Virus record (IMG/VR): IMGVR_UViG_3300042887_002597 | Coordinates: 110,234-131,354 of that record | DNA from: a virus | Taxonomy: Duplodnaviria > Heunggongvirae > Uroviricota > Caudoviricetes | Strand: one strand, 5' to 3' | DNA: 21,121 nucleotides | In this document: positions 1-18,435 of the stretch, one piece after another | Numbering within the stretch: position 1 is the stretch's first letter | Layout: the number at the start of each line of letters is the position of its first letter | The notes under the pieces: generated by a model | The model's database searches: none | Seen by the model: only the letters and a program-made list of their open reading frames with translations | What the model was told of the DNA's origin: nothing | Position numbers and translations under genes: made by a program

Positions 1-626
1 ACTGCTGCTAACGAGTTAGGTACTGCACATCCAAGATTATTGTGAGCGTGGAATCCAATAGGTATGTTCACCATCTCTTTCATAATACTAATTCGTATAC
101 TCACATCCGCTGGTAAGTAAGTTCCAGTTGAATCCATTATGATAATAGCTTGTGCACCATAATCCTCCATGATCTTAGCTTGTTGAGCTAATTCTATTGG
201 GCTTATTAAAGCACTCATCATCAATACACCATAAACTTCCTTACCGGTCTTGGCAAGATACTCTATGTGTGATTTAGATAAAGTAGCTTCTGTGCAGTGA
301 GTTGCTACTCGAAACACATCCACACCATAGTCTATAGCAGCCTTAGCATCATCAATAGTTGATAGTCCTGGGATTGTATGAATACCAAGCTTGGAGTTTT
401 TAAGATGCTTCTTAGCTGTAGTGAGCATCTCTTGGTCTGTATTAGGTGACTTGCCTATCAAGAGAGATGATGCAGCCAATCCATTTCCATGTCCTACCTC
501 TACAATAGGAATACCAGCCTTCTCTGCAAACTGACAATACTTTTCTATACTATCTAAACTGATAGTATGCTTTACGCTATGGTTTCCGTCTCTTAGACTA
601 GAGTCTGTTATGATAATGTTGTTCAT
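1..626 (-). CDS. mhpE: 4-hydroxy-2-oxovalerate aldolase (DmpG/MhpE, class II, HMGL-like TIM barrel); 3' end runs off the window
   Basis: Not in the ORF track. Manual translation from ATG at 626 is open to the window edge: MNNIIITDSSLRDGNHSVKH...IVEVGHGNGLAASS...FRVATHCTEA...IIMDSTG...IGFHAHNNLGCAVPNSLAA. It has the LRDG, EVxHGxG, HCTEA and GFHxHNNLG motifs of DmpG. ATGA overlap with the upstream acylating aldehyde dehydrogenase, its usual partner. Confidence 0.95.
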   Translation of the reverse strand, partial: MNNIIITDSSLRDGNHSVKHTISLDSIEKYCQFAEKAGIPIVEVGHGNGLAASSLLIGKSPNTDQEMLTTAKKHLKNSKLGIHTIPGLSTIDDAKAAIDYGVDVFRVATHCTEATLSKSHIEYLAKTGKEVYGVLMMSALISPIELAQQAKIMEDYGAQAIIIMDSTGTYLPADVSIRISIMKEMVNIPIGFHAHNNLGCAVPNSLAA

Positions 627-1483
627 GCTTCTGTTAATTTTTCGGTAACTTTAATTGCTGCACAGTTGATAATATCTAGGTTACCTGCATACGCTGGTAG
701 ATAATCACCTGCTCCTTTCACTTTGATACTCAATACTACAACTCCATTCTCATTCATTGTTGGAGGCAATACTAATTCGTAGTATGGTATGTATGTTTTG
801 AGTTCTTGTATCTTCTCCGTGATCTCCTCTGTTAAGTTTGTAAACTGTATGTCTTTAGTCTTAATGAAGATAGTTGTCTGCATGTCCACACAAGGCTCTG
901 CTGGATTTAGATTCAAGATAACTTTAGTGTTACTGCATCCAGTGAACTTGGTTATAGCTTTCTTTGTTGTTTTAATGTAGTTGTCTACATTGATACGAGT
1001 AGCCATACCAGCACTCTTAGAAGCAATCTGCGATACAATCTCAATGTACTCCAATCCTTTGCAGTGTTTAGATATTAGATGCAGCATAGGCATAGAAGCT
1101 TGTCCGCCACACGTAATCATATTAACATTGTCGTCAGTTAGAATGATATCAGAATTCACATCAGGAACGCACATATCACCTACTTTGGCTGGAGTTAAGT
1201 CTATAACTTTCACTCCTTGCTCTTTGAACACCTTTGCATGTTCCATTGCATCCAATGCACTTGTACAGTCGTACACAACATCACAGCAGTTAGGATTTGC
1301 TTTGAAGTACTCGATACCTTGATCAGACACAAACACTCCTTTCGATTTGGCAATGTTCATTCCATCGGAATCTAATCTACGTCCTACAAAAGCAACTACG
1401 TCTATAAAACCTGACCTTAGTGCTTTGAGTAAGAGATCGGTACCTATATTACCGGTACCAAGGATTGCTGCTTTTATTTTCAT
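623..1483 (-). CDS. mhpF: Acetaldehyde dehydrogenase (acylating), DmpF/MhpF family
   Basis: Rossmann motif AAILGTGNIGTDLL, DLTPA, catalytic-Cys motif NMITCGGQA, SKSAGxATRxNVD, and C-terminal GAGDYLPAYAGNLDII. Adjacent to the DmpG aldolase. Confidence 0.95.
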   Translation of the reverse strand: MKIKAAILGTGNIGTDLLLKALRSGFIDVVAFVGRRLDSDGMNIAKSKGVFVSDQGIEYFKANPNCCDVVYDCTSALDAMEHAKVFKEQGVKVIDLTPAKVGDMCVPDVNSDIILTDDNVNMITCGGQASMPMLHLISKHCKGLEYIEIVSQIASKSAGMATRINVDNYIKTTKKAITKFTGCSNTKVILNLNPAEPCVDMQTTIFIKTKDIQFTNLTEEITEKIQELKTYIPYYELVLPPTMNENGVVVLSIKVKGAGDYLPAYAGNLDIINCAAIKVTEKLTEA

Positions 1484-3231
1484 CTTATTACTAATTTGCT
1501 TCGTTCATTAACACCGGTAATCATAGCTTCTTCTATGTTATTGAGAGGGAGTAATGGTGACATCTCCTCGAGTAGACCAGCCTTAATTGTGTTATCTTGT
1601 TGTTTCATTCCTCTCACCTTTGGTATAAACTCCTGCTCAGGATCCATAAACACCTCCATGATACCACATCCAGGATCATTTATGAAGCTATCCATCTGCT
1701 CTTCTGTATAATACGGAAATTCAAACGCTTTTGCAACTTTTTTATAGTCTGGTAGAGTTACTCCGGTATTTTTATCTACACAAGTCTTGTGTCCTTGGAA
1801 CAACATCTTCTGAGTATGCTTGATCATTAGATACCCATCGTTGTTAAATATGATAATCTTAACTGGTAGGTTGTGTGTCTTAATAGTCTGAAGCTCTTGT
1901 AGGTTCATCATCATACCACCATCGCAGTTAAGACATAGTACTGGTTTGTCTCCGAAGCCTGCTCCTACTGCTGCTGCCAATCCATATCCCATCTCACCCA
2001 ATCCCAAAGACGTGAACATCTTTTGATTAGGCTTTATGTTGAATCCATAGAAGCCACTCAATAGAGCTGTACCCATGTCTGTTACTATTGTGTAGTTGTC
2101 AGGCCATGCTGTTGATAGCTTATCTATGAAAGTGTAAGAGTTAGTTGGATCGGCTAAATGCTCAGGCATTACCAATGGATACTCTTGCTTCATCTTGTTG
2201 CAATAGTCCACCCATGGTTGAATATCCAACTCAATAGATATCTGAAACTCATTAAGTAGTCTTATTAGTGATTTTGCATCTACGTTGTAGTTCTTCCCAT
2301 TAAACTTTCTAGTCTCAGTTGGATCGATATCAACATGGATTATCTCAGCGTTCGGAGCAAAGTCCTTTCTCGAGTATCCAGTTTGCAATAACGACAGCCT
2401 ACTACCCAATACAATAATCAAATCACTATTCTGTACTATGAAGTTGGCAGCACGCTGTCCTTGAACACCAGGTCTTCCAAAGTTGTTTGGATTGTCAGTT
2501 GCTAATAAGTCAACTGCTGACCAGCTTAATACTGTAGGTATTCCATGAGTATCAACGAGCTCTCTAAACTGACTCTCACCACCTGATAGCTTTACTCCAT
2601 GCCCTCCTAAAATTAAAGGACGTTTTGATTCGTTAAGTTTATTGACAATGTACTTAGCTTCTTCGATTGGCTCATCTGGTGAGTATGTGTATTCTGGAAA
2701 GCCACTAAACTCAGTTAGTTGACTTTGTGTATCAAACGGTACTTCTAAGTACACAGGTCCTGGTCTTTTACCATTAGTAATGGCATTAGCGAGCGCTAAG
2801 GTTTCAACTACATTATCTTTAGTAATACGAACAGAGAGCTTAGTGCAATTTTTGTAGGTTTCAACAGAATCATATCCCTGAACTCCGTACATACGCATGT
2901 CACTATACTCTTCAATGTAGTATGTTTGTTCCTGCCCTGCTATGATAATTCCTGGAATAGAGTCTGCCCAGTTGGATAGTATTCCTGTGAATGCATTTGA
3001 TGATCCACCGCCTGCTGTAACTAAAGCTACAGAAAGCTTGCCTGTTGCTCTATAATAAGCTCCCATAGCCATCACAGCTGCTTGTTCGTGATGGGTTGGT
3101 ATAAGTTTAATTTGCTCACATTTACTTAGAGAATCGTAGATGTAGGAATTTGCTGATCCTATAATACCAAAAACTACCTCTATGTTGTTAGCAAGGAGGT
3201 AGTCTCTGATGATGTCGCTGACTTTTACCAT
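1480..3231 (-). CDS. Thiamine-diphosphate-dependent enzyme, acetolactate-synthase-like fold; probable YerE-type sugar carboligase
   Basis: HHEQAA catalytic-Glu motif, TAGGG.SNA, SGKRP-like GKRPGPVYLEVPFD, central FAD-domain-like segment (GSRL, HVDIDP), and ThDP-binding motif CDGGMMMNLQEL...NNDGY. The YerE-type role is inferred from its position between RmlB and DmpF/G. Confidence 0.85.
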   Translation of the reverse strand: MVKVSDIIRDYLLANNIEVVFGIIGSANSYIYDSLSKCEQIKLIPTHHEQAAVMAMGAYYRATGKLSVALVTAGGGSSNAFTGILSNWADSIPGIIIAGQEQTYYIEEYSDMRMYGVQGYDSVETYKNCTKLSVRITKDNVVETLALANAITNGKRPGPVYLEVPFDTQSQLTEFSGFPEYTYSPDEPIEEAKYIVNKLNESKRPLILGGHGVKLSGGESQFRELVDTHGIPTVLSWSAVDLLATDNPNNFGRPGVQGQRAANFIVQNSDLIIVLGSRLSLLQTGYSRKDFAPNAEIIHVDIDPTETRKFNGKNYNVDAKSLIRLLNEFQISIELDIQPWVDYCNKMKQEYPLVMPEHLADPTNSYTFIDKLSTAWPDNYTIVTDMGTALLSGFYGFNIKPNQKMFTSLGLGEMGYGLAAAVGAGFGDKPVLCLNCDGGMMMNLQELQTIKTHNLPVKIIIFNNDGYLMIKHTQKMLFQGHKTCVDKNTGVTLPDYKKVAKAFEFPYYTEEQMDSFINDPGCGIMEVFMDPEQEFIPKVRGMKQQDNTIKAGLLEEMSPLLPLNNIEEAMITGVNERSKLVIR

Positions 3232-4193
3232 ATAAATTTATTCTTGTAATAATCAACTATACTGCTTATTTCTTCATTAAACAACTTTTTAGGTGACCAA
3301 CCTAATGCTTTTATCTTATCATCATCTAAGGCATATCGAACATCTTGTCCTGGTCTATTGCATGAAAAGTCTATGAAGTGATCATCTAGGTAAAAATCAC
3401 CCCAATTCTCTATTTCGATAAACTTACTGATTACCTGCTTTACTGTCTCGATGTTCTGCTGTTCAAAACCACCAGCTACATTGTATATTTCACCAACTTG
3501 TCCTTTCTCAATGAGAGTAATAACAGCTTCTGCAGTATCGTCTGCGTGTAGCCAGTTACGATAAGGAGTTCCATTGTTGTGTAGTGGTATCTTACGACCT
3601 AGATTTAGGCACTTAACTGCTTTTGGTATCAGCTTCTCAACATATTGACCAATTCCGTAGTTGTTGGTTGGTCTGATGATCATATAAGGCACATTGTGAG
3701 TTCTACCCCAAGCCATTACCAACATGTCTGCAGCTGCTTTAGTTGCTGAGTAAGGGTTACTTGGTTTGAGTAGATGATCCTCAGCATGAGCTCCTTCATC
3801 GATATCACCATATACCTCATCTGTACTAAAGTGCAACAGTACTGGCTTCTTAGCGTTCTCACCTCTATGGTTCTTTATCAGCTCCAAAAGGTTATGCACT
3901 CCATCTATATTAGACTTGACAAACTCAGTGCTACTCGCTATAGAGTTTCCAACATGAGTCTCAGCTGCTGTATTGATTACAAAATCACAGTCGTATAGAA
4001 ACTTCAACTCGTTGATATCGCAATGAACAAATGAGAAGTTTGGGTACTTCTTAAACTCTGTCAGCAAATCCTTTCTTGCTGCATAGGTAATCTTATCGAC
4101 TCCTTTTACAAACCATCCCTTCTCTAAACACTTTCTTGTAACGTAGGATCCTATGAAGCCTAGACATCCTGTGACGTAAACTACTTTTTTCAT
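3225..4193 (-). CDS. rmlB: dTDP-glucose 4,6-dehydratase (RmlB/RfbB family SDR)
   Basis: TGCLGFIGS, VDKITYAA, INTAAETHV, catalytic STDEVYG, PYSATK (YxxxK), RPTNNYG...EKLIP, RPGQDVRYALD. Confidence 0.92.
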   Translation of the reverse strand: MKKVVYVTGCLGFIGSYVTRKCLEKGWFVKGVDKITYAARKDLLTEFKKYPNFSFVHCDINELKFLYDCDFVINTAAETHVGNSIASSTEFVKSNIDGVHNLLELIKNHRGENAKKPVLLHFSTDEVYGDIDEGAHAEDHLLKPSNPYSATKAAADMLVMAWGRTHNVPYMIIRPTNNYGIGQYVEKLIPKAVKCLNLGRKIPLHNNGTPYRNWLHADDTAEAVITLIEKGQVGEIYNVAGGFEQQNIETVKQVISKFIEIENWGDFYLDDHFIDFSCNRPGQDVRYALDDDKIKALGWSPKKLFNEEISSIVDYYKNKFIW

Positions 4194-5149
4194 ATTATAT
4201 TATGCTTGATTAAATACTCATTAACTAAATTGTGATATGTTTGAGGTTTCCCATAATTAACTCCCTCTAACACTGTATGTCCTATAAAATGAACTACCTT
4301 TGACTTCAGACTAACATCCCAACCACCTAACTCACTTTCTGGATTAATCTCTCCAAACAATGGATGATATCCCCAGTTAGGACAGACGAAGTACTGGTCT
4401 GGTGTCATTATGTGTGGTGCTTTTTTAGATTTAATAATGTTCATTACTCCAAAGAAAGATTGCTGCTGTGTGTCTATAACAGACCTTTCTGGACCTACTA
4501 ACTCTTTTCCGTTTTCATCATAGATACCTCTATAATTGAATAGATTCAACATAAACAAAAAATACTCAGGATCCAAGAAATCATCATACATATCTAGTCT
4601 GATTCCCTGTATTCCTGCATTAAAACCTAATAGGTGAGGATTAATCTGCTTATAATACTCCCAAGCTCCTTCGTATATTTGAAAGATAGTGTTAGCTAGT
4701 GCTTTATCGCAGTTGCTATTGAGTGGCTCATGTAGCAAGCAAGGTAGTTCGTTTACCAAACAGTACTTGAGTTCAAACAACTCGTCTCCCAGTATAATAT
4801 CATCATCGTATATTAGATAGTAATTTGTGATATTATTCTTTTTAAGGTAATGACCATGTAGGATAAAGTATATGGCTTTGAACTTAGCAAAGCTGTCAAT
4901 TTTTGATTGATCTACTCCATAGTCTAAGCAATATTGATCTAGCTGCGATTTAGTATAATCTACTATGTTGGCGTTCAAATCTTGTATCTTAGCACTCCAC
5001 TCATCGGTGTAGTCCTCATCATCCCATAGTATGTGAAATTCAATCTCAAACTCGGATAACTTTGTTATTGCTTGGTGGATGGCAAAGAATGCTGATTTAT
5101 TCTTTGCTCTATACATATTGGCTATGACCAATCGTGGCTTTGCTGTCAT
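4190..5149 (-). CDS. Hypothetical protein, probable GT-A-fold glycosyltransferase
   Basis: Hydrophobic strand followed by a DDD motif (YYLIYDDDIIL), GFNAGI segment, QQSFF, and a late HFIGH. This layout resembles GT8-like enzymes, but I do not recognise a specific family. Confidence 0.5.
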   Translation of the reverse strand: MTAKPRLVIANMYRAKNKSAFFAIHQAITKLSEFEIEFHILWDDEDYTDEWSAKIQDLNANIVDYTKSQLDQYCLDYGVDQSKIDSFAKFKAIYFILHGHYLKKNNITNYYLIYDDDIILGDELFELKYCLVNELPCLLHEPLNSNCDKALANTIFQIYEGAWEYYKQINPHLLGFNAGIQGIRLDMYDDFLDPEYFLFMLNLFNYRGIYDENGKELVGPERSVIDTQQQSFFGVMNIIKSKKAPHIMTPDQYFVCPNWGYHPLFGEINPESELGGWDVSLKSKVVHFIGHTVLEGVNYGKPQTYHNLVNEYLIKHNII

Positions 5150-6843
5150 TTTCTCGTAACTCCTTTATTTATAATATCTTTATAATACATATCGTACAGC
5201 ATGTCGTTATCTAGGGGCCACTTGAAGCAAGCTTCAAAGTTTGCACGAACAAACTCTAACATAGACTCATACTTTTCTGGAGTAAGGCTGTCAATTATTG
5301 CATCCAATTCCTCTTGGTTATTGAAGTATAAGATACCCCTTGTATCAAAAAACTCACCAATGTTTATACATCCGTGGTAGATTGGAACAGTTCCAGTGAG
5401 GAAGCAATCTATAATCTTTTCTGAGAAATAGTTATCGTCGCATGATACATTTTCAATAGCAACACTAAATCTATAATCTCTCAGCGCATCGAGCTTACTT
5501 GGTATCTCTCTTCCCATGCCTCTACCAAACAAATCTATCTTATGTCTAATTGCTTTAATGAACTCTAACCTCTTTACGTGTCCTGGTAGAAATGCTTTTG
5601 ATGATACTACAGCAGACACCATCTTGCTTTTTGGATAAACTTGATAGGTACCTTCTGGTATCTCGTACGTATCTATGAGTTCTGATTTGTATGGTGGATG
5701 TCCGTATGGATTAGGCAGTCTATTGAATTGTGTAACCTCTGTTGGTGGTAGGAAATACGCGTTTGGAATTCTATTCAACAACTCTCTATCGAAGGTAAGC
5801 ACAGCATCAAACTTCTCATAGTTTTCTATAATAGCGTTATATATTCTGCGCTGGAAGTACTCTCTCTGTTCGAATAATCTTGCCACCAAAGGTGCTTTTC
5901 TAGTCACAGTAAACTCTCCATTAAGGTATTGGAGTATCGCAGGATCGCATAATACGGTCATATCAAATTCACCATCTGTTTGCTGATACACGTAAGTAAA
6001 CTTAGTTGGAACATTGCAGTACTCAAAGTAGTAATCTTGATTCCAAGAGTTTACTTGTGGTAGTCTTTCTCCAGTCAACCCTTCTTTGAAATGCTTCCTA
6101 TTTCTTATCTCTAACTCATACTTGGAGTTGTCATTGCTTTCGCGTTCTTGTGTTCTTACCGTGTTTTGATTGCTTTGATTATAGACTGCTGTGTAGAAAT
6201 CGACTACGGCAATCTTCTCTTTTGGACACATCTCCATATAAGGAAATTGGAATGCTAGGTCAGAGGCATGCCAGTAATAGCTTCCATCTTCAAGAGTCTT
6301 GAGAGCATCCAAAGGTAGAGCTTTGTATAAAAAGTTCCTAAAGGTTCTTGTATGTGATGCCCTCCATTGATCTCTTCTATAAAGCTTATGGTTGTGTACA
6401 AAATCTGGGTATGGTGTTGATTGTGGGTATGGAAGTTTTGGTGTATCACTACCATCCCAACAAACAAATCCACCATAAGTCATCCAACAATCCTTTTCGT
6501 TATAAAAGTCGTTAAGTTGTTGGAGTACATTTTCATCATACAACCAATCGTCTCCATCGAGATGCACTATGATGTCATCAGGATCAGTTAGGAAACTATC
6601 CAAGTTTTCAAAGTAGTTGAGAGTAGCTCCCAAGTTAGTCTCATTCTTTCTTACCATCCAGTTTGAGAGACCATTAACAGCTTCCAACACCTTCTCATAA
6701 GTGCTGTCAGTTGATGCATCGTCTATATACAATACATCGTAGTTTGTGTAGGTTTGATTCAACACACTAGCTACATTATATTCATACCAGCTTTCATTAT
6801 TAAACGAAGGTATGATTATTTTGAATTTATTTTGTTTATCCAT
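5146..6843 (-). CDS. Two-domain glycosyltransferase: N-terminal GT2 plus C-terminal GT10 (alpha-1,3-fucosyltransferase-like)
   Basis: N-terminal: IIIPSFN, SVLNQTYTNYDVLYIDDASTD, VHLDGDDWL. C-terminal: IDLFGRG and the GT10 motif YRFSVAIEN...NYFSEKIIDCFLTGTVPIYHG. Confidence 0.85.
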   Translation of the reverse strand: MDKQNKFKIIIPSFNNESWYEYNVASVLNQTYTNYDVLYIDDASTDSTYEKVLEAVNGLSNWMVRKNETNLGATLNYFENLDSFLTDPDDIIVHLDGDDWLYDENVLQQLNDFYNEKDCWMTYGGFVCWDGSDTPKLPYPQSTPYPDFVHNHKLYRRDQWRASHTRTFRNFLYKALPLDALKTLEDGSYYWHASDLAFQFPYMEMCPKEKIAVVDFYTAVYNQSNQNTVRTQERESNDNSKYELEIRNRKHFKEGLTGERLPQVNSWNQDYYFEYCNVPTKFTYVYQQTDGEFDMTVLCDPAILQYLNGEFTVTRKAPLVARLFEQREYFQRRIYNAIIENYEKFDAVLTFDRELLNRIPNAYFLPPTEVTQFNRLPNPYGHPPYKSELIDTYEIPEGTYQVYPKSKMVSAVVSSKAFLPGHVKRLEFIKAIRHKIDLFGRGMGREIPSKLDALRDYRFSVAIENVSCDDNYFSEKIIDCFLTGTVPIYHGCINIGEFFDTRGILYFNNQEELDAIIDSLTPEKYESMLEFVRANFEACFKWPLDNDMLYDMYYKDIINKGVTRK

Positions 6844-13950: not shown

Positions 13951-14632
13951 TACTTATTAAACTTGTATCTGTTGGCAGTGCTCGTAGTTGATCTGCATCT
14001 CTTTGCATAGGCTCAACTTCATACCCATGCGATTTATATAAATCATATAGTGATAACCGCTCCGACGCTATGTGTAATATAGGTGTACTACTGTATTGTA
14101 TGTTCTTTATTATTCTCGTAGCTGCCTCCTCCAAAAAGTACTTAGAACTATATTGATCTGCAAAAGCTTTGGTATATATCTTACGTACAAATGGTGCTCT
14201 TATTATTTGGTAGTTAGGTAGTGTTGATACAATGTATTCGGATGCAGCTTTTGTTTTACCGTACACGTTCTTAGGATTCAATCTATCATCTACTGTGTAG
14301 AAACCTCTTTCTCCCCCAAAAACATACTCTGATGAAATATAAACAAATTTACAATCCAATCCAACACTAGCTCTCACCAAGTTGGCTGTTCCAATTACAT
14401 TCACTTGTATGGCGTATGCCTTATCCTGCTCACATCCAAAGGTATCTACAAACGCAGCTGCGTGTATTACGATACTAGGCTTGAACTCTTGTACTATGGT
14501 ATGTACGCAGTTGTAATCCGTAATATCGCACACATCGCTTCCTGGTGCGTATACGTTCCACTCTTTAGGAATCTTCTTGTGGAGAGCAGTACCTAAAGCA
14601 CCACTTCCTCCTGTGATAAGGACATTAACCAT
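13937..14632 (-). CDS. RmlD-like NAD(P)-dependent NDP-4-keto-sugar reductase (short, 231 aa)
   Basis: NVLITGGSGALG, VIHAAAF, VNVIGTANL, YISSEYVF, PKNVYGKTK (YxxxK). Start revised from the track's 14656 to the ATG at 14632 (MVNVLITGG), which gives an 8-nt overlap like other junctions here. Confidence 0.85.
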   Translation of the reverse strand: MVNVLITGGSGALGTALHKKIPKEWNVYAPGSDVCDITDYNCVHTIVQEFKPSIVIHAAAFVDTFGCEQDKAYAIQVNVIGTANLVRASVGLDCKFVYISSEYVFGGERGFYTVDDRLNPKNVYGKTKAASEYIVSTLPNYQIIRAPFVRKIYTKAFADQYSSKYFLEEAATRIIKNIQYSSTPILHIASERLSLYDLYKSHGYEVEPMQRDADQLRALPTDTSLISNEHE

Positions 14633-15692
14633 GCATTTGTTCGTTAATCCACTCATACGTTCTTCTCACTCCTTCTTTAAGTGGCAAGCTTGGTTCCCAT
14701 CCTACTTTCTCCTTAAAGAGCTTGTTATCTGAGTTCCTTCCTCTAACTCCTACGGGACATTTAAAGCCGTATTTAGCTCTAAACTCTTCACCATCAATGT
14801 TTTTAACATAAGCTCGCTTGTTAGCGACCTCAATAGCCATTTCTGCTAACTGGTTAATAGTAACCATTTCTTCCGAGCCAATGTTAACAGGACCTAAAAA
14901 CTCATCTTGTCTCATAAAGCGAATAACGGCTTCTATACACTCATCTATGTAAAGGAACGATCTCGTTTGTTGTCCATCTCCCCATACTTCAATCTCATCA
15001 TCCATCAAGGAGTCAGCTACTTTACGACACATAGCTGCTGGTGCTTTTTCCTTTCCTCCATGCCAAGTACCATAAGGTCCAAATATGTTGTGGAACCTAG
15101 CTACCCTAACATCAAGATTGTAGTTTCGATTAAAGGCTAAGTACAACCTCTCGCTAAACAACTTTTCCCAACCATACTCCGAATCTGGATTAGCTGGATA
15201 TGCACTAGATTCCTCACAATTTGGGTTATCGGGATCTAGTTGATTGTGCTCTGGGTACATACATGCTGATGAGCTGTAGAATACACGCTTAGCTTTTTGC
15301 TCTACAGCTTCTTTAGCAACATTAAGGTTAATTAGAGCTGAGTTATGCATTACATTAGCATCATTCTCTCCTGTGAAGATGTAACCAGCTCCACCCATGT
15401 CAGCTGCTAATTGATAAACCTCATCGAAATGAATATGCTTAACAAATGGTCTAGGAGAGTTGTATTCATACTTTAAAGGATGTACACCGTCATTGGACTC
15501 TATTAAAAAGGCGTTTTTAACTACTCGAGGATCTCTCAAGTCTCCTATAATAAAGTCATCAGCTGCCGTTTCCCAATGCTCTGGATGCTTTAAATCGACT
15601 CCACGAACCCAGTATCCCTCTGACTTTAGACGTTTTACTAAGTGCGAGCCAATAAAACCTCCAGCACCTAATACTAATGCAGTTTTTTTCAT
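14625..15692 (-). CDS. GDP-mannose 3,5-epimerase (GME)-like extended SDR
   Basis: GAGGFIGSHL, QLAADMGGAGYI, catalytic Cys in SSSACMYP, YGWEK (YxxxK), RFHNIFGP, catalytic Lys in GKEKAPAAMCRK, WGDGQQTRSF, GVRGRNSDN. Confidence 0.9.
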   Translation of the reverse strand: MKKTALVLGAGGFIGSHLVKRLKSEGYWVRGVDLKHPEHWETAADDFIIGDLRDPRVVKNAFLIESNDGVHPLKYEYNSPRPFVKHIHFDEVYQLAADMGGAGYIFTGENDANVMHNSALINLNVAKEAVEQKAKRVFYSSSACMYPEHNQLDPDNPNCEESSAYPANPDSEYGWEKLFSERLYLAFNRNYNLDVRVARFHNIFGPYGTWHGGKEKAPAAMCRKVADSLMDDEIEVWGDGQQTRSFLYIDECIEAVIRFMRQDEFLGPVNIGSEEMVTINQLAEMAIEVANKRAYVKNIDGEEFRAKYGFKCPVGVRGRNSDNKLFKEKVGWEPSLPLKEGVRRTYEWINEQMHG

Positions 15693-15701
15693 ATACTATT
15701 G

Positions 15702-16682
15702 TTATTTTTCTAATATACTCAAAATGGAACGAATAAACAACTCTTTATTATAGTGCAATTTGTAATTCTCCTGAGCTATCTTGCTGCAATGTGAGTAAAA
15801 AGCATCGTCTTCTGCTAATCTCTTAGCGAGAGTTCTTGCTTGCTCCAAGTCATGTACATCAACAGCTAAGTCTGGGTGGCATATATTTTGGGTATCTACT
15901 TGTTTGTTTCCTATGCAAGGTATTCCGAAGTATGCACAATTTAGACTAAAGGTTCCTGCCGCTACTGTTGGCATTAAGTGAACCGCATACTTGAAGGAGC
16001 TCAACTGCTTCATCCAATCTGTCCAGAGCACTCGCGGTAAGTGATTAATTAGCTGATCTTCACCGTCTCTCATTGCATGGGAAGTTTGTCCCCATATAGG
16101 AACATTAAACTCTTGGGCTATCATATAGCTCTCAAAGCCTCCATACCATCTTGCGAAGTTACCTCCTACGATAGCTTTATCTTCCGGTTGTGGTTTGATA
16201 CCTTCTACAATAGCGTCTATCATTAGAGTAGGCATACAACCTACAGGTTTGTTTGGAAACATTCCTTGATAGTACTTTGTGTCTGATTGGTTGTGTGCAA
16301 AAATACCATCACAACTTGCAATCATATTATAGAAGTTTATCTGATCCGCTAGCTCGTAGTCGTTGAACCACCAATGAGGCCCTTCTTGCATGTAAAACAC
16401 CTTGGTGTTGGTCAATTTTAGCTTTCCAACTAAGTCGTGTGAGAGTATTTCAGATACTGGGTTCTGTTCTTGTGTTAATCTCGAACCACATGCATCTAAG
16501 AATACCCTACCTTTAGGGAAGATAACTACTACAGCATCATACCCCACTACGTCGTGGGGATTATGAATGTTGTAGTGCGTAGCGTCGAGAGCGTGCATCC
16601 AAGCAAACTCTGTTCTCATATTGGAATGATTCGCAGGAACCTTTCCAATAAAGCCCATTTCAGTTAGAAATGCTATTTTCAT
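15702..16682 (-). CDS. Hypothetical protein, probable GT-B-fold glycosyltransferase
   Basis: N-terminal KIAFLTE strand. C-terminal YAVHLMPTVAAGTFSLNCAYFGIPCIG resembles the GT-B nucleotide-binding helix motif (GTxxxExxxxGxPxI) and is followed by the typical LxxD...Y terminal helices. Confidence 0.6.
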   Translation of the reverse strand: MKIAFLTEMGFIGKVPANHSNMRTEFAWMHALDATHYNIHNPHDVVGYDAVVVIFPKGRVFLDACGSRLTQEQNPVSEILSHDLVGKLKLTNTKVFYMQEGPHWWFNDYELADQINFYNMIASCDGIFAHNQSDTKYYQGMFPNKPVGCMPTLMIDAIVEGIKPQPEDKAIVGGNFARWYGGFESYMIAQEFNVPIWGQTSHAMRDGEDQLINHLPRVLWTDWMKQLSSFKYAVHLMPTVAAGTFSLNCAYFGIPCIGNKQVDTQNICHPDLAVDVHDLEQARTLAKRLAEDDAFYSHCSKIAQENYKLHYNKELFIRSILSILEK

Positions 16683-17827
16683 TTAGCAAAGAACTCTTTA
16701 ATCTTATCACAAACGTAGTCAACGTCTTCGATGGTCATTCCATGGTGAGCTCCTAATAAGAATCCATTCTTCATAATTGCATCTGAGTTATCAAATGGTT
16801 GTAGGTACTCTCTATAAACTGGGTGACGGGTTACGTTACCGGCAAAGGTTACACGAGTTTGGATACTATTGTCTTCCAAGAAGGTTAGCAACTCTAATCG
16901 TCTCTCTGTCTGCAACGGAATAGCTAACCAATTTGGTTGGATGCTATCATCTGGTAAGATTAACTCTTTTACATCCTTCAAGTTCTCAAGATAGCGTTCA
17001 ATGTTAGCTCGACGAGTATCTTTGTAAGTCTCGAAGCGCTCTAACTGTACTAAGCCAAATGCTGCACTCATCTCACTGCACTTCATGTTATAACCTAATA
17101 CTCCATAAAGGAACTTGTGATCGTAAGGAATGCCATCTACTTTATGGTTAAAGCGATCGTCCATGATCTCTGAGTTGTCTCCAATACGTCCCCAATCACG
17201 ATACTGTAATGCTCTCTCCACATGCTTCTTGTCGTTAAACATAACCATACCACCAGTACCACCTGCTGTGATAATGTGACTTGCATAGAAGCTAGTAGTC
17301 GCTACATCAGTCTCTTCTGTGTAGGTGATTGTATCTGCAGAGTCTTCGATTACATAAATGTCTGTACGACCTATACGCTCAAGTTCAGCTCGCAAAGATG
17401 CCCAATCAGGTTTGTTACCAATAAGGTTGGGTACCATAATTGCTTTTGTATCGCTATCGATTGCAGCAATAATATCAGCTACAGTTGGTACATAGGAAGT
17501 TAATCCTACATCAACAAATACTGGCTTGTATCCTAATTGAATGATCGGTGCTAATGTTGTTGAGAATGTACATGCTGGTGTAATCACTTTACATCCTTTT
17601 GGAAGGTCTAGTGCTGCTAATGCTAGTAAGCAAGCTGATGATCCAGAATTAACGAATACACCATACTTCTTACCAAAGCGCTTTGCAATCTTCTCTTCAA
17701 ACTCAATTGAACGAGGTCCAAATCCAGCTAACCAACCGTCTCGTAAGCAGGCTTCAACTGCCTTGATTTCCTCTTCCCCATAAGATTCAAACTTATTAGG
17801 GGCATACCATACTTTTCTTGTACTCAT
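16679..17827 (-). CDS. DegT/DnrJ/EryC1/StrS-family PLP enzyme, His-type NDP-4-keto-6-deoxyhexose 3-dehydratase (E1/RfbH- or ColD-like)
   Basis: VNSGSSA, PACTFSTT, EDSAD, SFYASHIIT with His at the Schiff-base Lys position, RDWGR, YDHKF, LGYNMK, and TRVTFAGNVTRHP as in E1/RfbH. The Fe-S cysteines are absent. Confidence 0.85.
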   Translation of the reverse strand: MSTRKVWYAPNKFESYGEEEIKAVEACLRDGWLAGFGPRSIEFEEKIAKRFGKKYGVFVNSGSSACLLALAALDLPKGCKVITPACTFSTTLAPIIQLGYKPVFVDVGLTSYVPTVADIIAAIDSDTKAIMVPNLIGNKPDWASLRAELERIGRTDIYVIEDSADTITYTEETDVATTSFYASHIITAGGTGGMVMFNDKKHVERALQYRDWGRIGDNSEIMDDRFNHKVDGIPYDHKFLYGVLGYNMKCSEMSAAFGLVQLERFETYKDTRRANIERYLENLKDVKELILPDDSIQPNWLAIPLQTERRLELLTFLEDNSIQTRVTFAGNVTRHPVYREYLQPFDNSDAIMKNGFLLGAHHGMTIEDVDYVCDKIKEFFAK

Positions 17828-18435
17828 AACGTATTATAATAATTGTTTTGTTTTTCTTGTTTTTTTATTGTCTTAGGATGAAATAATGCATACTCTTCTG
17901 ATACTGGAAGATACGTAAATTGTTTGTGATTTACAAGGATTTCGTGAACTTTATTTTGCCACTTGATATTGCCATCGTTTCGATAGATTCTATGTTGCCA
18001 GTCTGGCCAGTTTACCCAACCATTACCATCAACTCTCCAACCCCATTGCTGTATATGCTCCTGTGTCAATCCTTCTACTGTATTCACTCGTGGTACCAGA
18101 TATACATCAACGTCAGGATTGGCTTCTACAATTGCTGGTAGGGTTTCTATGAAGTGAAGGTGTGGATATTCATCTGCATCAATTTGAAAGACGTAGTCGC
18201 CTGTGCATAGTTCTGTTAGTTTATTCTTCCACTCCGCAAAGTTGTGTTGAAAGTTGTCCCACACAAATTTAATTCCTTCTACCGACTTTAGGTAGTCAAA
18301 CGTCTCCTTAGTGCCGTTGTTGTCGTATAACACAACAATCTCGTCTTGCTCTCGCTTATTCTCAAGAAGAAGGTCAAGCAAACGCTTAACCTCTTCTAAT
18401 TCATTGCATACTGTAATTGCGTAACTAATTTTCAT
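17824..18435 (-). CDS. GT2-family glycosyltransferase (KdtX/WaaE-like short form)
   Basis: ISYAITVCNE, VVLYD, FQIDADE (DxD), VPRVN, PDWQHRIYRN, WQNKVHE. Confidence 0.85.
   Translation of the reverse strand: MKISYAITVCNELEEVKRLLDLLLENKREQDEIVVLYDNNGTKETFDYLKSVEGIKFVWDNFQHNFAEWKNKLTELCTGDYVFQIDADEYPHLHFIETLPAIVEANPDVDVYLVPRVNTVEGLTQEHIQQWGWRVDGNGWVNWPDWQHRIYRNDGNIKWQNKVHEILVNHKQFTYLPVSEEYALFHPKTIKKQEKQNNYYNTL

Follow-up and report, generated by a model that had tools for sequence, protein, structure and literature searches.

A predicted NDP-4-keto-6-deoxyhexose 3-dehydratase of the His-type DegT fold that lacks the iron-sulfur site, encoded by a tailed phage

Two solutions are known for the deoxygenation of hexoses at C3, namely that of E1 and SpnQ, in which an Fe-S cluster works together with a reductase, and that of ColD, which relies on glutamate. 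In E1, the ligands of the [2Fe-2S] cluster are reportedly C193, C251, C253 and C261. Their spacing, which we take to be C-X57-C-X-C-X7-C, is reproduced by the cysteines of the orthologous Salmonella RfbH, located at positions 192, 193, 251, 253, 257 and 261. To our knowledge, all characterized cluster-free enzymes are ColD orthologues that act on GDP-manno sugars.

E1 of Yersinia and Salmonella (also DdhC or RfbH; CDP-6-deoxy-L-threo-D-glycero-4-hexulose 3-dehydrase, PDB: 3BCX) yields, together with the reductase E3, CDP-4-keto-3,6-dideoxy-D-glucose (PMC8987622). SpnQ, the TDP-4-keto-2,6-dideoxy-D-glucose 3-dehydratase of spinosyn forosamine, is also a His-type enzyme with a dTDP-linked gluco-type substrate and has no dedicated E3 gene, but it binds a [2Fe-2S] cluster and needs ferredoxin/flavodoxin reductase pairs (PMC8987622). 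Cluster-free chemistry with recycling by glutamate is established for ColD (PMC8987622) and for enzymes of C. jejuni (PMC10440746), and PLP with L-glutamate is the sole established cluster-free route.

Here, we examine a gene of a large uncultured phage at positions 16679-17827 on the minus strand (the initial annotation had named no strand) of a window of 21,121 nucleotides. On the basis of Pfam, NCBIfam, PDB and AF2 comparisons, the 382-residue product is predicted to be a His-type DegT-fold enzyme, an NDP-4-keto-6-deoxyhexose 3-dehydratase without an Fe-S site. We consider it reasonably likely that this protein is a PMP/PLP-dependent nucleotide-sugar C3-dehydratase of a distinct Cys-less His-type DegT clade, with ColD-like glutamate recycling and a gluco substrate.

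The record that holds the gene comprises 131,354 bp and is about 75% complete. A prasinovirus origin, suggested by acetolactate-synthase-like, aldolase and acetaldehyde dehydrogenase genes, was ruled out by PHROGs matches to the major head protein, portal and large terminase of tailed phages. An NCLDV capsid model found no match in the record, and the control of that model was silent too.

The protein gives a full-length match to PF01041 (DegT/DnrJ/EryC1/StrS; 5.7e-74, residues 17-376), and its AF2 model (pLDDT 95.7) and fold matches display the fold type I PLP architecture. The top Foldseek match of the model is E1 (3bcx, TM 0.88), further ones being ColD, perosamine synthase and ArnB; the ColD entries include 3b8x (H188N) and 3gr9 (H188K/S187N). 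In a sequence search of the PDB, E1 (3bcx) scores 203 bits (7e-59) and ColD 126 bits (1e-35), and the profile scores are 381 bits for E1 versus 275 bits for ColD. The score against the NCBIfam RfbH model (NF011936) is 259.7 bits, below the family cut-off of 423 bits.

We now turn to the active site. The initial annotation had a histidine in place of the PLP lysine, and both script placement and alignment bear this out, with the CAC codon of His184 at 17276-17278 (minus strand). Lys-type homologues carry the motif SF(H/Y)xxK, whose Ser-to-Lys spacing equals that of S179...H184, and His184 therefore replaces the Schiff-base lysine; it is aligned with His220 of E1 and with the aminotransferase Lys. 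The preceding residue is Ser183, like Ser187 in ColD. Among 200 close homologues (76-99% identity, mostly from phage contigs), all keep His184 and Ser183, as well as Ser163 and Ala164 discussed below. With E1 the enzyme shares the DegT fold, the replacement of the Lys by His and the RDWGR...YDHK(F/Y) framework, and it also retains the Asp of E1 position 194 and the Tyr of position 217. It differs from E1 in having Ser instead of Ala at -1, Ile instead of His at +1, Thr instead of Glu in GEGG and Leu instead of Phe at E1 position 345, and it is shorter (382 versus 437 residues).

The most conspicuous difference concerns the cluster ligands. Between RDWGR (17186-17200) and YDHKF (17111-17125, both on the minus strand) the loop of residues 215-234 (17126-17185, minus strand) holds 20 residues and, as initially annotated, no Cys. 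This loop is the counterpart of the C251-x-C253-x7-C261 loop of E1 and is 4 residues shorter; the columns of C251, C253 and C261 are occupied by G216, a gap and M222, respectively. Ser163-Ala164 in IEDSAD (17336-17341, minus strand) lie at the columns of E1 Cys192 and Cys193, the latter being the fourth ligand, so that none of the four ligands is a Cys. The HMMER alignment with the E1 chain of 3bcx gives the same picture. Residues 210-240 are devoid of Cys in 200/200 close homologues, and the loop of the clade members has neither a conserved Cys nor a conserved His in the homologue and clade alignments. As judged from its sequence, the enzyme is unable to bind an E1-type cluster. An alternative cluster site was also considered and rejected: of all the cysteines in the protein (27, 66, 79, 86, 250 and 373), only Cys66, Cys86 and Cys373 are kept among close homologues, and none of them is clade-wide.

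The reductase partner is missing as well. That the window contains no E3 or ferredoxin gene could be extended to the whole 131,354-bp record, in which the profiles Fer2 (PF00111), NAD_binding_1 (PF00175) and FAD_binding_6 (PF00970) gave no matches. NAD_binding_1 was likewise not found in 45 of 47 related phage records, one of them 92% complete; the other two carry an FNR-like ORF of 240 residues 15-20 kb away. In the genome of an Fe-S-type relative, the sole FNR-like ORF sits on a different contig. An FNR-like ORF of 411 residues located 11 kb from a homologue of a gammaproteobacterial sub-clade was discarded as a partner, its 412-residue counterpart being far from the homologue in another genome of this sub-clade; by its size it could, we presume, be a housekeeping NqrF-type protein.

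These data bear on the option that E1/SpnQ-like reduction is kept, such that host ferredoxin, flavodoxin or another partner would feed the PMP-glucoseen without an enzyme-bound cluster. That E1 is the closest enzyme by sequence and fold, that Asp and Tyr are retained at E1 positions 194 and 217 and that an FNR-like ORF occurs in 2/47 related records would all fit this option. However, with zero ligands, no conserved Cys or His in the loop, and the FNR-type gene missing from this record and from 45 of the related ones, we regard it as very improbable; we are also unaware of any enzyme of this family in which electrons are transferred without a cluster.

Cluster-free turnover is found in ColD (E. 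coli O55, PDB: 2GMS; GDP-4-keto-6-deoxy-D-mannose 3-dehydratase), which, together with the C3-dehydratases of C. jejuni HS:5/HS:11, resembles the phage enzyme in its Ser-His pair and in the absence of the Fe-S cysteines. ColD is also alike in length (ca 385 residues) and in having no reductase partner. Unlike the phage enzyme, it has RAHGW instead of RDWGR and a His at +1, and it acts on GDP-manno sugars with Gmd and ColC as partners, whereas the neighbor here is RmlB-type. In the trees, ColD groups with a marine bacterial homologue at 100%, and the phage enzyme falls outside this ColD clade. It belongs instead to a clade of about 50 representative clusters, all of them Cys-less and monophyletic at 99%, which is set apart both from ColD and from the Fe-S E1 clade. 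Going by these sequences, it is a member of a large separate clade, and not a lone E1 stripped of its cysteines.

In rooted trees, ColD, the Cys-less clade and nearly the entire E1 group are united in a single His-type group (support 70 with 110 rows and 98 with 41 rows), just outside which one Cys-bearing row branches. The split of all His-type rows from the Lys aminotransferases has a support of 97 (110 rows) or 96 (41 rows), which makes 3-dehydration the parsimonious function. An AU test on the 41-row alignment, with the E. coli O55 sequence as ColD, did not reject the Cys-less clade and ColD as sisters (p 0.56). The initial annotation had spoken of an E1-like scaffold, and this therefore holds in the sense of similarity (203 versus 126 bits for 3bcx and ColD, TM 0.88) but not of demonstrated descent; the trees with E1 and ColD separate the clade from plain ColD at 99% and leave the deep branching order unsettled.

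It is important to note that the clade departs from ColD at residues that ColD and E1 have in common. The -1 residue is Ser, as Ser187 in ColD, in 41/51 clade members (Ala in 29/33 Fe-S E1 types), but the +1 His of ColD and E1 is changed to Ile, Val or Met, and the Glu of (G)EGG to Gly, Thr or Ser, so that ColD-type handling of PLP and glutamate is not guaranteed. A third mechanistic class is therefore conceivable, in which an E1-like architecture would act on dTDP/UDP-gluco substrates and the PMP-glucoseen would be resolved neither in E1's way nor strictly in ColD's, for instance with help from an RmlD-like SDR domain, whether fused or adjacent, or with a distinct donor for PLP recycling. The clade's own signature, Ser-His-(Ile/Val/Met) without the glutamate of GEGG and with Leu in place of Phe345, argues for such a class, although we think it unlikely.

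Another Cys-less entry is PDB 9WVY ('putative NDP-4-keto-6-deoxyglucose-3-dehydratase'), a His-type protein whose loop likewise lacks the Cys triad. It is distant from the phage enzyme (113 bits, below ColD), retains GHH and GEGG, and was dismissed as a close relative, as it fits neither the present clade nor a small Cys-less 'AHI' clade.

The neighboring genes give information about the substrate. The window encodes an RmlB-type NDP-glucose 4,6-dehydratase (3225-4193, minus strand), the likely supplier of a 4-keto-6-deoxy substrate, which scores 296 bits with the dTDP-glucose model TIGR01181 versus 68 bits with the CDP-type model TIGR02622 and 43 bits with Gmd. It is the sole 4,6-dehydratase; unlike in the E1 systems, the record holds neither an E3 gene nor a CDP-type 4,6-dehydratase, and the CDP-glucose pathway context of E1, with its cytidylyltransferase and CDP-glucose 4,6-dehydratase, is not encountered. 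The neighbors thus point to an RmlB-type (dTDP/UDP-glucose) and not a Gmd-type 4,6-dehydratase, in keeping with the dTDP-gluco substrate that had initially been raised as a possibility. Next to this gene is a YerE/JanthE-type ThDP carboligase (1480-3231, minus strand; Pfam TPP_enzyme N/M/C; 3e-141 against JanthE, PDB 8rph, PMC12188165), the likely consumer of a 4-keto-3,6-dideoxy product. A DmpG-like aldolase, which runs off the window, and a DmpF-like acetaldehyde dehydrogenase (3-1483, minus strand; Pfam) are counterparts of ErwI/ErwJ, which make the keto-acid donor in the erwiniose scheme (PMC9306805).

The same logic of aldolase, acetaldehyde dehydrogenase and ThDP carboligase underlies erwiniose and yersiniose formation (ErwE/YerE, ErwI/ErwJ), where the acceptor of the ThDP enzymes is a 4-keto-3,6-dideoxy sugar (PMC9306805). 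In the bacteria this acceptor is CDP-4-keto-3,6-dideoxy-D-glucose, whereas the phage pairs an RmlB-type enzyme with a Cys-less dehydratase. The arrangement recurs: the gene immediately after the dehydratase encodes an RmlB homologue in 21 loci and a ThDP homologue in 6, together 27 of 68 related phage loci. Relatives also occur as fusions with RmlC, RmlD or 4,6-dehydratase domains, and these domains would use up or provide just the intermediates proposed below. This context supports a real 3-deoxygenase.

Closer to the gene, a GT2 glycosyltransferase (17824-18435, minus strand; Pfam) has its TGA stop overlapping the dehydratase ATG (ATGA) and is one of its neighbors in 69/80 related loci. On the other side, the ATG of a 326-residue protein (15702-16682, minus strand), with no Pfam match and GT-B-like by eye, overlaps the dehydratase TGA (ATGA). 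It is followed by a GDP-mannose 3,5-epimerase homologue (14625-15692, minus strand; PDB 2c59, 1.9e-88), which means that GDP-sugar chemistry is present as well, and the island also encodes a GMP-like cupin/nucleotidyltransferase and a GT10 domain.

These GDP-type genes would suit a plain ColD function, in which GDP-4-keto-6-deoxy-D-mannose from a host Gmd is converted to a colitose-type sugar, which the GT10-containing transferase would then use. The Ser-His pair without cysteines and the AU test (p 0.56) are compatible with this as well. On the other hand, the enzyme lies outside the 100% ColD clade and scores higher with E1, the record has no gmd (the top score with the gmd model, 41.5 bits against a cut-off of 415, is that of the RmlB-like gene itself), the recurrent direct neighbor is an RmlB-type dehydratase, and the fusions are to RmlC/RmlD-type domains. 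We therefore judge a plain ColD function to be rather improbable.

Taken together, the lack of both ligands and a partner, along with the gene context, makes turnover by PLP and glutamate as in ColD, with dTDP- or UDP-gluco sugars as substrate, our best inference. The RmlB-type 4,6-dehydratase would provide dTDP- (or UDP-) 4-keto-6-deoxy-D-glucose, with which the enzyme-bound PMP would form a ketimine at C4 of the sugar. His184 would then take the C4' proton, and the 3-OH would depart. Since the enzyme has neither a [2Fe-2S] site nor a reductase partner, we propose that the 3,4-enamine adduct is probably hydrolyzed as in ColD, to give the NDP-4-keto-3,6-dideoxyhexose and ammonia, and L-glutamate would return PLP to PMP. 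The keto product may next be branched by the ThDP neighbor, in the manner of erwiniose and yersiniose, and/or be reduced. Against this mechanism stand the GDP-type genes of the island, which weaken the case for a gluco nucleotide, and E1, the most similar characterized enzyme, which shows no glutamate turnover.

It is also conceivable that no net deoxygenation takes place, and that a 4-aminotransferase reaction or a stalled PMP adduct, similar to the side reaction of SpnQ, leads to a 4-amino-4,6-dideoxy sugar. SpnQ does transaminate when given PLP and glutamate without reductase (PMC8987622), and the fold and PLP-binding residues are of aminotransferase type. However, a His at the Lys position is confined to the dehydratase group in the tree, the linked ThDP carboligase requires a ketone acceptor, and the fused RmlC/RmlD domains require a 4-keto substrate, which leaves this outcome with little likelihood.

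Not every part of the clade belongs to sugar pathways, as a gammaproteobacterial sub-clade is surrounded by genes resembling those of steroid or aromatic catabolism (SDR, KstD-like, KshA-like and FMO), and sugar genes are absent there. This sub-clade would be in line with another PMP/PLP-dependent reaction, whose keto substrate would be no sugar or would differ in some other way. It is, however, just 40% identical to the phage enzyme and has a different motif (FHI), whereas nucleotide-sugar and glycosyltransferase genes surround the phage enzyme's own sub-clade in 80/80 phage loci, with fusions to sugar-nucleotide enzymes; such a reaction is extremely unlikely here.

As to the scope of the pathway, the initial annotation called it self-sufficient, which is overstated. 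There is no RmlA-type nucleotidyltransferase for NDP-glucose in the record, the sole NTP_transferase being a 639-residue multidomain protein, and the host would still provide NDP-glucose, PLP and glutamate.

If the clade indeed works on dTDP/UDP-gluco substrates, phages would make 3,6-dideoxy and C4-branched sugars without Fe-S assembly or a dedicated reductase, probably by a group of enzymes that needs no more than vitamin B6 and glutamate to remove the C3 oxygen. An oxygen-tolerant catalyst made of a single protein would then be at hand for the enzymatic synthesis of NDP-3,6-dideoxyhexoses, and a widespread automatic E1-type label would be corrected: in the JGI annotation the proteins go under 'CDP-6-deoxy-D-xylo-4-hexulose-3-dehydrase' or 'reductase, E1'. 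A literature search found no assays of any Cys-less clade member. The gene is abundant, with 288 IMG/VR contigs and over 120 protein clusters of at least 89% identity, so that one assay result would annotate many sequences.

The predicted 3-dehydratase (P0001, 382 residues) is encoded by one open reading frame at 16679-17827 on the minus strand. Its start codon overlaps the TGA stop of the GT2 gene upstream (ATGA, 17824-17827), and at the other end its TGA runs into the start codon of the following gene (ATGA, 16679-16682), whose 326-residue product looks GT-B-like by eye and has no Pfam match. The dehydratase gene thus belongs to an operon whose genes are tightly packed and run in one direction. 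The window is the final 21 kb of an IMG/VR virus record of 131,354 bp, estimated to be 75% complete, and the major head protein, portal and large terminase of a tailed phage were found elsewhere in the record with PHROGs.

Scripted placement puts the His184 codon at 17276-17278, RDWGR at 17186-17200 and YDHKF at 17111-17125. Since S179 and H184 are spaced exactly as in the SF(H/Y)xxK motif of the Lys-type homologues, the Schiff-base lysine is replaced by histidine, as the initial annotation had claimed; it was also right that the stretch between RDWGR and YDHKF is free of cysteine, the 20 residues there containing none. The six cysteines of the protein are residues 27, 66, 79, 86, 250 and 373. 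Salmonella RfbH (L004, from a GenBank fragment) has cysteines at 192, 193, 251, 253, 257 and 261, with a spacing of C-X57-C-X-C-X7-C that we take to be that of the E1 cluster; Agnihotri et al. in 2004 reportedly described this spacing. In the query, S163/A164, G216, a gap and M222 occupy the cluster columns, and the loop lacks four residues relative to the Fe-S loop of E1.

The cysteine-less His enzyme is a family trait and not an accident of one phage. Across 200 close homologues (76-99% identity), His184, Ser183, S163 and A164 are invariant, and a cysteine within residues 210-240 was found in none. The only cysteines conserved among them (Cys66, Cys86 and Cys373) are not kept in remoter members of the clade, which means that there is no substitute cluster site. 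The tree set holds 104 His-type sequences (the query, representatives, genome-locus homologues and two references), and the Cys triad of the E1 loop is missing in 69 and present in 35. More than 120 metagenome clusters at ≥89% identity contain this protein type, and a relative is encoded on 288 IMG/VR contigs. Homologues 63-77% identical also occur in MAGs labelled Pacearchaeota, SAR86, Ignavibacteria, Flavobacteriaceae and Chlamydiae (loci L005, L006, L007, L008 and L010); this spread over unrelated phyla suggests that phage contigs had been binned with cellular genomes and that the genes are not truly cellular.

In a 110-row IQ-TREE phylogeny (LG+G4, SH-aLRT), for which six Lys aminotransferases served as the rooting outgroup, the split between these and all His-type rows is supported at 97. 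ColD of E. coli (O55 O-antigen locus, L049) pairs at 100 with a marine homologue, the Fe-S E1/RfbH types fall in a clade at 92, and a separate third clade of 51 rows, all cysteine-less, contains the query (99). These groups recur in a tree of 41 rows (query clade 99, ColD 100, rooted His-type group 98, the last leaving out one Cys-bearing row, L044). The AU test does not reject (p 0.56) a tree constrained to unite the query clade with ColD, and this tree is better by 3.4 log-likelihood units. The tree with E1 and ColD proposed in the initial annotation yields a distinct query clade, but the trees do not fix the branching order of the three groups. At least six changes of the Cys triad are needed on the large tree, so it was gained or lost repeatedly. 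By similarity, E1 is nearer than ColD (203 vs 126 bits for the single sequence, 381 vs 275 for the query-clade profile), and the predicted model (pLDDT 95.7) matches E1 (PDB 3bcx) with a Foldseek TM of 0.88. The E1-like scaffold of the initial annotation therefore holds as a matter of similarity, but not of proven descent.

With an active-site signature of its own, the query clade is not simply E1 in a degraded form, nor is it plain ColD. It keeps E1 Asp194 and Tyr217, as do the Fe-S E1 enzymes; ColD has Glu and Phe there, and the Lys aminotransferases have His in 4/6 and 3/6, respectively. Preceding the catalytic His is Ser in 41/51 members (Ala in 29/33 Fe-S E1, Ser187 in ColD, Thr in 4/6 Lys aminotransferases). 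Following it is Ile, Val or Met, where Fe-S E1 and ColD have His and the Lys enzymes mostly Asn. The Glu of (G)EGG, present in Fe-S E1 and ColD and Glu/Asp in the Lys enzymes, is Gly, Thr or Ser, and E1 Phe345 (Phe also in ColD, His in 4/6 Lys enzymes) is Leu.

We now turn to the mechanism. Fer2, FAD_binding_6 and NAD_binding_1 domains are absent from the whole 131,354-bp record (75% complete), which extends the earlier statement that the window has no E3 or ferredoxin gene. Of 47 related phage records, 45 likewise lack NAD_binding_1, one of these 45 being 92% complete; in the other two, a ~240-residue FNR-like protein with this domain lies 15-20 kb from the dehydratase gene (G019:C1:18818-19123, the record of L126, and G028:C1:3678-4019, the record of L096). 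As a positive control for a reductase gene next to the dehydratase gene, the Fe-S-type relative L026 failed: the only FNR-like ORF of its genome lies on another contig. With neither cluster ligand nor reductase, the E1/SpnQ electron-transfer route is closed to the query. The only established alternative is that of ColD, in which hydrolysis of the PLP-enamine adduct releases ammonia and L-glutamate serves to restore PMP (PMC8987622); the C. jejuni enzymes have ColD-like turnover and are ColD orthologues by their motifs. For this reason we propose that the query probably performs ColD-like chemistry: dTDP- or UDP-4-keto-6-deoxy-D-glucose would be the substrate, the PLP-enamine adduct would hydrolyse with loss of ammonia, and PMP would be restored from L-glutamate. 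Both the step from the missing cluster to glutamate recycling and the nucleotide, dTDP or UDP, are what we infer. Against the proposal, two residues that ColD keeps, the +1 His and the (G)EGG Glu, are missing from the query clade, and one bacterial sub-clade lies in a non-sugar neighbourhood.

The gene context points to a working 3-deoxygenase. The sole 4,6-dehydratase of the window is RmlB-type (296 bits with the dTDP-glucose model, 68 with CDP, 43 with gmd), and no gmd was found in the incomplete virus record. Next to this 4,6-dehydratase lie a ThDP enzyme that, among solved structures, is most similar to JanthE (8rph, 3e-141), a DmpF-like dehydrogenase and a DmpG-like aldolase. The three correspond to ErwE/ErwJ/ErwI of the erwiniose scheme, where a keto-acid-derived branch is put by the ThDP enzyme on the 4-keto-3,6-dideoxy sugar that a 3-dehydratase produces (PMC9306805). 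In the 68 related phage loci whose sequence reaches far enough downstream, the gene directly after the dehydratase is RmlB-like in 21 and encodes a ThDP enzyme in 6; one or the other lies within 10 kb in 45/80 loci. The closest non-phage relatives are fusions, namely RmlC+RmlD+dehydratase (868 aa), RmlD+dehydratase, RmlC+dehydratase and dehydratase+4,6-dehydratase (metagenomic multi-domain proteins P0005, 868 aa; P0003, 814; P0008, 707; P0034, 603; P0033, 795; P0032, 728). The reactions of the fusion partners, which may be likened to that of ColC after ColD, either yield or use up the very intermediates proposed here, and the fusions imply a putative single-polypeptide route to an NDP-3,6-dideoxy-L-hexose. 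One ESM Atlas cluster similar to them is mostly Nucleocytoviricota.

A GDP-manno substrate, supplied by Gmd of the host, is a conceivable alternative. The 355-residue SDR at 14625-15692 (minus strand) is a clear homologue of plant GDP-mannose 3,5-epimerase (PDB 2c59, 1.9e-88), which means that the island also processes a GDP-sugar; a GT10 domain (5146-6843) fits such use. These two, together with a GMP-like nucleotidyltransferase, speak for a GDP-manno substrate and count against the dTDP or UDP nucleotide of the proposal.

The ColD-like reaction and its cofactor logic are already known, and the enzyme is no new kind of system; what is new is the uncharacterised lineage, its different nucleotide-sugar context and its viral distribution. 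In the literature searched, we found no enzyme assay of any query-clade member. The solved 'putative NDP-4-keto-6-deoxyglucose-3-dehydratase' 9WVY has a similarly Cys-free loop, but is only distantly related. Source databases call the phage proteins CDP-type E1, a label contradicted by the membership tests on the query. The result bears on annotation and biocatalysis, and would be a moderate surprise to a deoxysugar enzymologist.

The genes of a gammaproteobacterial Cys-less His-type sub-clade with the motif SFSIFHIIT (L011:9890-11218, on the 3.9-Mb chromosome of a Sediminihaliea MAG, and also L012, L013 and L017) are set between those for an SDR, a KstD-like flavoprotein, a KshA-like Rieske oxygenase and an FMO, and no sugar genes accompany them; the substrate of this sub-clade may be a keto compound other than a sugar. 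Inteins interrupt some of the relatives. The insert of P0100 and P0109 starts right at the Fe-S loop's first Cys (RDWGRD|C...), CxCx7C resuming ~380 residues on, and in P0022, P0043, P0062, P0073, P0126 and P0146 an insert lies near residue 170; P0022 matches Intein_splicing and Hint_2.
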